From the IMG/VR virus record IMGVR_UViG_2897352509_000007: a stretch of 64,000 bases of DNA; one strand, written 5' to 3'. Of this stretch, positions 9,001 through 12,000 are shown one piece after another. Origin of the DNA: a virus (taxonomy: Duplodnaviria > Heunggongvirae > Uroviricota > Caudoviricetes). Made by a program: the position numbers. Each line of letters begins with the position of its first letter. Position 1 is the first letter of the stretch.

Positions 9001-12000
9001 TAGTAACGGCCTGAGCGTTCCGCCAGTCCGGCGACAACTGGCGGCCCCCAAACGCCCGTCGGGGCCAACGCCAATTGAGTTGCTGAAACAGGAATATGAA
9101 CGCCGGAAAGCGGCTGGTTTTGTTTGAGTTGAGAAGTGATTTTTTACCGGGAGGAAATTTATGGAGACTGTTTTTGACGCACTGAAAGCGATGGGAAAAG
9201 CCACGTCGGTATAGCTGGCTGCGCGACTTGATATCAGTCGTGAAGAAGTACTGAACGAGCTGTGGGAACTGAAAAAGGCTGGCTTCGTTGATAAAAGCGT
9301 ATACACCTGGCGTGTGGCTGATAACAACGTTCAGCAGGAACAGCCAGCGCCAGAAGAAACCACCACGGCAACAGAAGCGAAAATCTCAGAGTGCGATTTA
9401 ACCGCGACGATTGAACAACGCGGACCACAAACGGCGGATGAACTGGCTACGCTGTTCGGTACAACATCCCGCAAAGTTGCTTCAACGCTGGCAATGGCAA
9501 TCAGCAAAGGTCGTCTGATTCGCGTAAACCAGAACGGTAAAATTCGTTACTGCATACCAGGTGATAATTTACCAGCAGAGCCGAAAGTTGAATCGGTAGC
9601 GGAAACCGATGGTAAAGCCTTTCCTCAGCCAGCCGGTGTTGCGTTACCGGTACAGAAAGATGCAACACAGGAAGATATTAAAACAGAAACTGTGGCGGAC
9701 ATTGTGCAGTCGCTGCCATCGTTTACTGCAACGCGAGAAGATGATTTGATTTTGCCATCGCTGCATATGGCAAATCGCGAACTGCGTAGGGCGAAGAATC
9801 ATGTCCAGAAGTGGGAGCGAGTCTGCGCCGCGCTGCGGGAGCTGAACAAGCACCGGGATATGGTTGCCGGGATTTGTCGGAAGTCCGGGCAATGAGCGGA
9901 TGGTGCAGGCCTGAAATCATGATACTAACAATGAAGGTAAAATGCATCGGCAGTCTGATTGGTCGTAGTGAGGCGGCGGTCAGGATGAAAGCCCAGGTTA
10001 AGGGAATAAGCCTGATTCTGCGGGGTGATTTTCACCAGTCAACAAAATATCCGTAGCGCGATAACGGTCAAAAATTATGGCGCTGACACTTTTGTGCCAC
10101 TGGAGATGACTGTACCTAAGTTCAGGGGAGAAGAACACGTCCGGTGGGATGGTCGGGCCAGATTTAAAGGGCAGGTCATGGCTCCAGCCTGTACGCTGGC
10201 AATGGAGGCTGCCTGGCGGGAAATTGATATGGGAACCACGCCACTCAGGGATTTACTGCCGGTCCAGAGAATAAATTCCTGTTACGGTTACACCACTGTG
10301 ATCTTGCAAGTGCAGGAAAGTAGGTCTACACGGTAACGCGAGTGCGTGTAACTTTTGATGTCATTCCCGTAGAAACACCGGACAAATTTTCGCTGACAGG
10401 TCATGCAGAAGGTATAAATCTGCAGATTATGGACAATTACGGATATCCGGCAAGAGCCGGAAAAAGCATGCCGCCTCTAATTCTCAGTGGAAGATGGACT
10501 TGATTATACTCATTGCATTGTCAGAAATAGTTATCCATTAAAGGCTGGCTATTCCAAACAGGATGTTGATTACAAAAATGTAATCAACATGTAAGGTTTA
10601 TACTCTTCAATATGCGTATAATTTTCCTTATTTTGTTGACTTTAAATAACAAGCTATGCACGAGGTAAAGTCGGATAAGTTTATCTGGATGTAATATATA
10701 TTATTTGTAGTGTTTATAACTTTATTTCATGATAACCAATAAAAGGAGTTTTTTATGAGGAACATAATGGCAGGTTTTTTAATATTCCTGTCTTCTGCTG
10801 CTTATGCTGATATCAATCTGTATGGTCCTGGTGGCCCGCATACAGCCTTGCTTGATGCAGCCAAACTTTATGCCGAAAAAACAGGTATTATAGTGAACGT
10901 TCATTACGGCCCACAGAACAAATGGAATGAAGATGCCAAAAAAAATGCAGATATCTTGTTTGGCGCATCAGAACAATCTGCTCTGGCTATCATTCGGGAC
11001 CATAAAGACAGCTTCAGTGAAAAAGATATTCAGCCTCTTTATCTGCGAAAAAGTATTTTACTGGTAAAGAAAGGTAATCCTAAAAATATCCGGAGTATTG
11101 ACGACCTGACCAGACCTGGGATTGGCGTAATTGTTAATGATGGTGGTGGTACCAGTAATACATCAGGCACTGGCGTCTGGGAAGATATTGCCGGACGTAA
11201 AGGGAATATAGAAACTGTCGCCGCAATCCGAAAAAATATTATTTTATATGCGCCCAATAGCGGAACTGCACGTAAGGCTCTTGAGAATCAGCCTGGAGCA
11301 GATGTCTGGATAACCTGGGCTGACTGGGCAGCCAGTAATCCAGAAATTGGTGATGTCGTGGAAATAGCGCCAGACTACGTGATATGGCGTGATATGAACA
11401 TTACAGTACGTCAGGATGCAAATGATGAAACCCGTCGATTTGCAGAATGGCTACAAACCGATGAAGCGGCGCCTGCATTCAAAAAATATGGCTGGACCAG
11501 GAAAGGCACTTGACATCCTCGTCCTTCAGGACGTGGATTCTTTTTCCGGATGCCGCGCCAGCGGCATGTAGGGGCAGCTCACAAAACGGAAAAAATTGTA
11601 CGCTAAGCCTCGCCAGGTGAACTGAATTCATTCCGATATGGGAATTCCCATATCGGGCGAAAACGGTTTGCTGTAACGGCAGAGTTAAGTAGGATTGCTG
11701 CGGGTGCTTGAGGCTATCTGCCTCGGGCATGAACACCAACGGCAGATAGATAAAAGCCCCACCCGACTATAAATCGAAGTGAGGCCCCTATATGCTCGTC
11801 ACATATAGATTGCCTCTTACGGACCGAAAGGTCAAGGAGAAGCAGGCTATGAAGCAGCAAAAGGCGATGTTAATCGCCCTGATCGTCATCTGTTTAATCG
11901 TCATAGTGACGGCACTGGTAACGAGGAAAGACCTCTGCGAGGTACGAATCCGAACCGGCCAGACGGAGGTCGCTGTCTTCACAGCTTACGAACCTGAGGA

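Follow-up and report, generated by a model that had tools for sequence, protein, structure and literature searches.

In Escherichia coli O157:H7, a lambdoid prophage integrated at ompW carries in its early-right operon a gene of the DUF1627/YdaW family that is interrupted at its eighteenth codon by an in-frame amber codon. The gene was examined in the virus record IMGVR_UViG_2897352509_000007 (Caudoviricetes), a stretch of 64,000 nucleotides, hereafter called the window, to which all coordinates refer. The ompW-integrated prophage has been named PPompW by Nakamura et al. The interruption is very probably due to a nonsense mutation (GAG to TAG, hereafter E18amber) that is recent and specific to one lineage, in a prophage accessory gene belonging to a known but uncharacterised family. 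The initial annotation of the window had proposed either a recent nonsense mutation or a gene expressed only under amber suppression. The first proposal is supported by a one-base difference from the intact copies of O55:H7 and O145:H28, and by the fact that TAG is seen only in the O157:H7 lineage.

The entire gene occupies positions 9161-9895 and, like all its parts described below, lies on the plus strand. A Shine-Dalgarno motif, GGGAGG (9149-9154), can be read directly in the sequence 6 nucleotides upstream of ATG 9161, and in the alignment Rac-SA53 and vB_EcoS-683R6 have the same six bases. Codons 1-17 (9161-9211) translate as METVFDALKAMGKATSV and span the first helix and the beginning of the second in an N-terminal winged-helix domain. 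The amber codon TAG (9212-9214) then stands in place of GAG (Glu18), the change being a single G-to-T transversion at 9212. The remaining 226 codons and the TGA stop codon at 9893-9895 (9215-9895 in all) encode the rest of winged-helix 1, an acidic linker, winged-helix 2, the DUF1627 region and a C-terminal long helix. When the intact protein is compared with the window by tblastn, 244/244 residues are aligned at 99.6% identity, and this copy of the gene is the only one in the window. Reading and translation of the sequence therefore confirm what had first been noticed, namely an ATG behind a strong ribosome-binding site, a TAG after 17 codons and a frame that stays open beyond it. As had also been noticed, a mechanical search for the longest open reading frame (ORF) conceals this arrangement, since the ORF list contains only GTG 9314..9895 (193 amino acids). 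The pattern is not due to chance, because the full frame 9161-9895 matches phrog_630 from end to end (residues 1-242/244, E 6.7e-123) and because the orthologues share the ATG.

The nearest relatives provide the most direct evidence for the origin of the amber codon. In the O145:H28 PPompW (LC567818), the gene has 735 nucleotides and encodes 244 amino acids, with ATG and TGA as in the window, and codons 17-19 read GTA GAG CTG there vs. GTA TAG CTG in the window. Over the 851 nucleotides from 9100 to 9950, position 9212 is the sole difference from this copy (L004; 99.9% identity). Hence, as expected for a pseudogene, the single base that creates the stop is all that separates the window gene from an otherwise identical intact orthologue. 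O55:H7 CB9615, which represents the lineage ancestral to O157:H7, carries the gene in the same prophage context, intact (244 amino acids) and with GAG. The comparison of this strain with window positions 5185-12190 (about 7 kb) reveals seven base differences, T/G at 9212 included. The intact allele of O55:H7 and O145:H28 PPompW (WP_000450692.1; BCI48946.1) also has the same neighbours as the window gene, that is Cro/CI, YdaT, the DnaT-like and lambda-P-like proteins, the small ORF, the fimbrial pseudogene, paa and hokD. In Rac-type orthologues, codon 18 is GAA. Since the nearest relatives have GAG and Rac-type copies GAA, the ancestral codon was a glutamate codon (GAG), from which one G-to-T transversion gives TAG. 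CAG, which had been considered the likely ancestral codon, is not borne out. A sense codon is indeed found at position 18 of the orthologues, and these consist of one continuous gene rather than of two separate genes with a stop at this position.

The 17 codons upstream of TAG are conserved as coding sequence. Compared with Rac-SA53, they show five synonymous differences and no non-synonymous difference; together with the full-length phrog_630 match, this pattern shows that they are coding. Moreover, the orthologues initiate at the same ATG. A search for homologues yielded 2,727 proteins, the best 120 of which are nearly all 240-257 amino acids long with about 100% coverage. In an alignment of 46 close homologue clusters, E18 is invariant, as are most of residues 1-60. 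The 43 full-length relatives, with identities of 21-66%, can all be aligned starting at residue 1, and their position 18 is occupied by a sense codon, mostly for Glu.

The distribution of the two alleles was surveyed in 5,426 complete E. coli genomes, using exact matches to a 61-mer centred on codon 18. The TAG 61-mer is present in 292 records, and the serotype-named ones among the matches listed are all O157:H7. The GAG 61-mer is present in 311 records, which include, among the matches listed, O55:H7, O145:H28, O26:H11, O111, O103, O121 and others. Three O55:H7 genomes are among the GAG matches listed: CB9615, RM12579 and TB182A, the last being one mismatch from the TAG query. Thus, among the matches listed, TAG is restricted to one lineage and the outgroups carry a sense codon. 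The best 30 O157 records match the 851-nucleotide stretch with 100% identity. TAG is also carried by O157:H7 PV15-279. This strain belongs to the early-branching, glucuronidase-positive lineage of O157:H7 (clonal complex A5), which is held to have given rise to typical O157:H7 (A6; PMC6256406). As TAG is found in PV15-279 and GAG in O55:H7, the mutation arose between the divergence from O55:H7 and the separation of A5 from A6.

The same survey bears on the idea that TAG results from faulty sequencing or assembly of the window record. This is next to impossible, since 292 records of complete genomes, which were assembled independently and come from many groups and platforms, contain the very same 61-mer. 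TAG is also found in an unrelated draft contig, GCA_051684065.1, with a different downstream mosaic. In this contig (L006 1148-1897), TAG and identical flanks lead into a C-terminus of the Rac type (…DIVRQITDSSRRVVSEK), and a DUF977 gene lies downstream, replacing the small ORF, the fimbrial pseudogene and paa. The presence of TAG within such a mosaic indicates that the allele has been moved by mosaic recombination.

The evidence does not support the second proposal of the initial annotation, in which the gene is expressed only when amber codons are suppressed. In principle, TAG could be read through by a host or phage suppressor tRNA, or by programmed readthrough, so that expression would be low or conditional by design. 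The stop is an amber codon followed by C, which is a relatively weak termination context, and a second gene of the prophage, the gpK-like gene at 36313, is likewise cut by TAG. Nevertheless, such a design is highly improbable. TAG is confined to one recent lineage whose immediate relatives have GAG, and the alignments of 46 and 43 sequences show no stop at position 18. The gpK-like TAG is present in 29 records only, so that it is a separate and later event. Finally, the tRNAs of the window, as seen by ARAGORN and Rfam, have the anticodons CAT and TCT only.

Suppressor alleles of the host were sought in 5,441 records, using query sequences of supE (glnV CUA) and supF (tyrT CUA). The supE allele has an exact match in 155 records; the 40 that were listed are all K-12 laboratory derivatives and serve as a positive control. 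No exact match to supF was found in the 5,441 records, and the tRNA-Tyr of O157:H7 PV15-279 is wild-type. Thus, among the matches listed, neither allele was seen in O157:H7, in a host search that covered supE and supF. With regard to the host suppressors that the initial annotation had invoked, supE is therefore limited to K-12 laboratory strains among the matches listed, and supF is in none of the records. Overall, the stop is not conserved among relatives, and a cognate suppressor tRNA was found neither in the window nor among the alleles searched. Laboratory amber mutants such as lambda Sam7 likewise have a single UAG in a phage gene. However, these mutants depend on supE or supF hosts, in which they were selected, whereas the allele of the window is a natural lineage marker for which the searches made found no suppressor.

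A recent nonsense mutation would have the following consequences. In the O157:H7 lineage, the G-to-T transversion turned the GAG codon of Glu18 into an amber codon. Ribosomes would load at the Shine-Dalgarno motif and ATG 9161 and would stop after 17 codons, and the 244-amino-acid protein would no longer be produced from the O157:H7 copy of the prophage. The 226 downstream codons would have stayed open owing to the youth of the clone and not to maintenance, the clone being too young for further lesions. We infer that the function of the interrupted gene is lost. An effect on the next gene, by lost translational coupling or by polarity, is also plausible. Indeed, this small ORF (9892-10056, plus strand, 54 amino acids, the C-terminal 41 residues of which match phrog_30109) begins within the end of the interrupted gene, its ATG overlapping the TGA in ATGA (9892-9895).

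Nothing directly contradicts a nonsense mutation of this kind, but some observations qualify the loss of function. The 226 codons that follow TAG are intact and include the complete Pfam DUF1627 region, so that a truncated product is possible. RefSeq lists the remnant as a normal protein and not as a pseudogene. As for the restriction of TAG to O157:H7, serotypes were read from the listed matches only.

The undamaged downstream region leads to another explanation, in which re-initiation at GTG 9314 or CTG 9215 would give a functional, N-terminally truncated protein made of winged-helix 2 and the C-terminal helix, devoid of an intact winged-helix 1. GTG 9314-9316 (plus strand, codon 52) is the first canonical in-frame start past TAG in the list of in-frame starts and in the ORF list. 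It is the one plausible site for re-initiation, and its product would lack winged-helix 1; CTG 9215 abuts TAG. The distance from stop to restart would be 0 or 99 nucleotides, and gaps of this size are within the range of known bacterial re-initiation. In addition, phrog_11856 and several database entries correspond to the C-terminal part alone, and PGAP annotates a 226-amino-acid protein. Even so, this explanation is unlikely. Inspection of the 20 nucleotides upstream of the in-frame starts shows no Shine-Dalgarno sequence ahead of GTG 9314, and none is present at CTG 9215 either. Winged-helix 1 is retained in each of the 43 distant homologues of full length, and its residues rank with the best conserved of the family. 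The short database entries that were examined are fusions, fragments or frameshift products. Besides, in a young clone the frame beyond TAG would be open in any case.

The nonsense allele might also be functional in itself. Low-level re-initiation at GTG 9314 could give an altered or dominant-negative YdaW variant, or the loss of the protein could have been selected in the O157:H7 founder. Such a role is very unlikely, and the occurrence of TAG in every sampled O157:H7 is explained equally well by clonal descent. O157:H7 also has several paralogous copies of the gene in other prophages, with 4-8 matching places per genome. Finally, a hidden RNA or an opposite-strand gene was considered as an explanation of TAG and rejected. 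At gathering thresholds, Rfam has no match in 8.9-10.1 kb; three antisense ORFs (8896-9327, 9644-9892 and 9723-9947) have no PHROG match; and a scan for promoters and terminators gave nothing exceeding the shuffled expectation.

A recent nonsense mutation also has to be set against the current annotation of the gene. In PGAP/RefSeq, it appears as a 226-amino-acid "DUF1627 domain-containing protein" (WP_077744273.1), the start of which is CTG 9215, right after TAG, with no pseudogene flag. We regard this start as an annotation artefact, one that matters when intact genes are counted. The T at 9212 provides a clean single-nucleotide marker that distinguishes the sampled O157:H7, the glucuronidase-positive lineage included, from O55:H7 and from non-O157 PPompW carriers. 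The biological weight of E18amber is small: it is already known in kind, as an ordinary nonsense mutation, and adds one more point lesion to the decaying prophage pool of O157:H7. The codon-18 stop is not mentioned in the literature found for DUF1627, YdaW, the two protein accessions or PPompW.

The assignment of the gene to its family is based on several features. The product of 9314-9892 matches Pfam DUF1627 (PF07789, curated cut-off 28.1 bits) with E 5e-93, and the intact orthologue does so with E 8.4e-93. Weak helix-turn-helix matches precede this region, at residues 4-46 of the repaired frame. The window gene thus has the PF07789 match, the full-length architecture and the position downstream of replication genes that characterise the family, and lacks the uninterrupted frame. 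In Rac-SA53 (ydaU-ydaV-ydaW) and in vB_EcoS-683R6, where it is annotated as "putative YdaW family protein", the related gene is found in the same slot, directly after the replication genes, and has 89-92% DNA identity to the window gene. The window gene differs from these Rac-type copies in the stop at codon 18, in the C-terminal dozen residues and in the gene that follows (mosaic junction). An exhaustive search among 1.84 billion cluster representatives retrieved 176 related representatives; the family is therefore narrow.

The AlphaFold2 model of the intact protein has a mean pLDDT (predicted local distance difference test) of 82, with values above 94 for the winged-helix domains. It comprises a winged helix (residues 1-52), an acidic linker that is disordered, the second winged helix (75-131), another linker and a long C-terminal helix (201-243). 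The N-terminal helices are modelled at residues 4-11 and 16-23, so that residue 18 belongs to helix 16-23 of winged-helix 1. A Foldseek search of this model against the PDB gave generic tandem winged-helix matches alone (ScpB, ESCRT-II, SelB, MarR-like), with a best E of 3e-4 and template modelling (TM) scores of about 0.2-0.3. Because these matches are weak and generic, no specific function can be assigned. YdaW is among the uncharacterised putative transcription factors (PMC9308461), and in a screen (bioRxiv 10.1101/2020.06.22.160242) Rac ydaW, when over-expressed, was recorded as blocking the toxicity of retron-Sen2 RcaT. Beyond these two reports, the literature searched on DUF1627/YdaW gives no functional hint.

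The surroundings of the gene identify the host element. The prophage begins with an integrase gene and its cargo includes nleA, nleH1-2 and nleF. The genes of this part of the window run from Cro/CI through YdaT-like, DnaT-like (7633-8673) and lambda-P-like (8666-9127) to the DUF1627 gene, which is followed on its 3' side by the 54-amino-acid ORF, the fimbrial pseudogene, paa and hokD/sok. The same gene order is found in Rac-SA53, vB_EcoS-683R6, the O145:H28 PPompW and O55:H7. Positions 3166-11226 of the window are base-for-base identical to E. coli O157:H7 EC4115 (NC_011353.1).

Decay is also visible elsewhere in the prophage. RefSeq flags as pseudogenes a ydaT frameshift, the fimbrial gene, a C40 peptidase gene, a DUF1076 gene and integrase remnants. 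In the gene for the gpK-like tail peptidase of the C40 family (about 36256-36999), the in-frame TAG is located at 36313-36315, codon 20, and is reported by PGAP as an "internal stop"; the corresponding residue of lambda K is Ser. An exact 61-mer carrying this TAG occurs in 29 complete-genome records, which points to a later, separate event in a sub-lineage and fits piecemeal decay rather than a design dependent on suppression. The YdaT-family toxin gene (7111-7661) has a 1-bp deletion at about 7196 (ATATTAATCAC changed to ATATTATCAC) compared with O55:H7 and O145:H28, and is described as frameshifted by PGAP. The exact 61-mer of this frameshift is found in a single complete genome record, that of EC4115; it is either a mutation private to the strain or an error in the old EC4115 assembly. 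The fimbrial-protein pseudogene (10061-10594), located between the small ORF and paa, contains a frameshift and several stops. It is a pseudogene in O55:H7 CB9615 too and is therefore older than the amber mutation. These decay events are independent of one another and of different ages, and they support the interpretation of E18amber as a recent nonsense mutation.

In O157 Sakai, defects were found in all but one of 18 prophages (Asadulghani et al., 2009; PMC2669165). E18amber is, in comparison, one more point lesion in an O157 lambdoid prophage, but it affects an accessory gene of unassigned function whereas that study scored core functions. The words "amber" and "nonsense" do not occur in the searched text of PMC2669165.

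Several other observations were made along the window. Next to the DnaT-like gene, positions 7628-7629 are GG in the window vs. TT in O55:H7 and O145:H28. They are located 4-5 nucleotides 5' of the DnaT-like start (7633), inside the end of ydaT, and the difference might alter the ribosome-binding site. In O157:H7 PV15-279 (L001 1024-2236, corresponding to about 8392 of the window), an IS1203/IS629-type insertion element splits the DnaT-like gene; this insertion is absent from the window. As regards EC4115, no difference is seen up to about 12 kb, beyond which one cluster of 164 differences lies in the region of the DUF968 gene (12.5-14 kb) and another of 20 at the terminase (23-25 kb). Both clusters look like recombination patches, so that the window and the EC4115 record are not one and the same.

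Rfam matches are present in 11702-11851 and 16481-17092 and correspond to the sok antitoxin RNA beside hokD, a tRNA (CAT, annotated as tRNA-Ile), tRNA-Arg(TCT), STnc100 and AgvB. STnc100 (16823-17031) and AgvB (17033-17092, minus strand) are downstream of a DNA methyltransferase gene. Towards the end of the window, the integrase/excisionase/exonuclease block is repeated at 58275-60714, with 97.6% identity to window positions 1-2441. Further dicB-region matches are found at 62501-63389, and a DicF RNA lies on the minus strand at 62778-62829. It appears that a second, related prophage starts in tandem near 58 kb.

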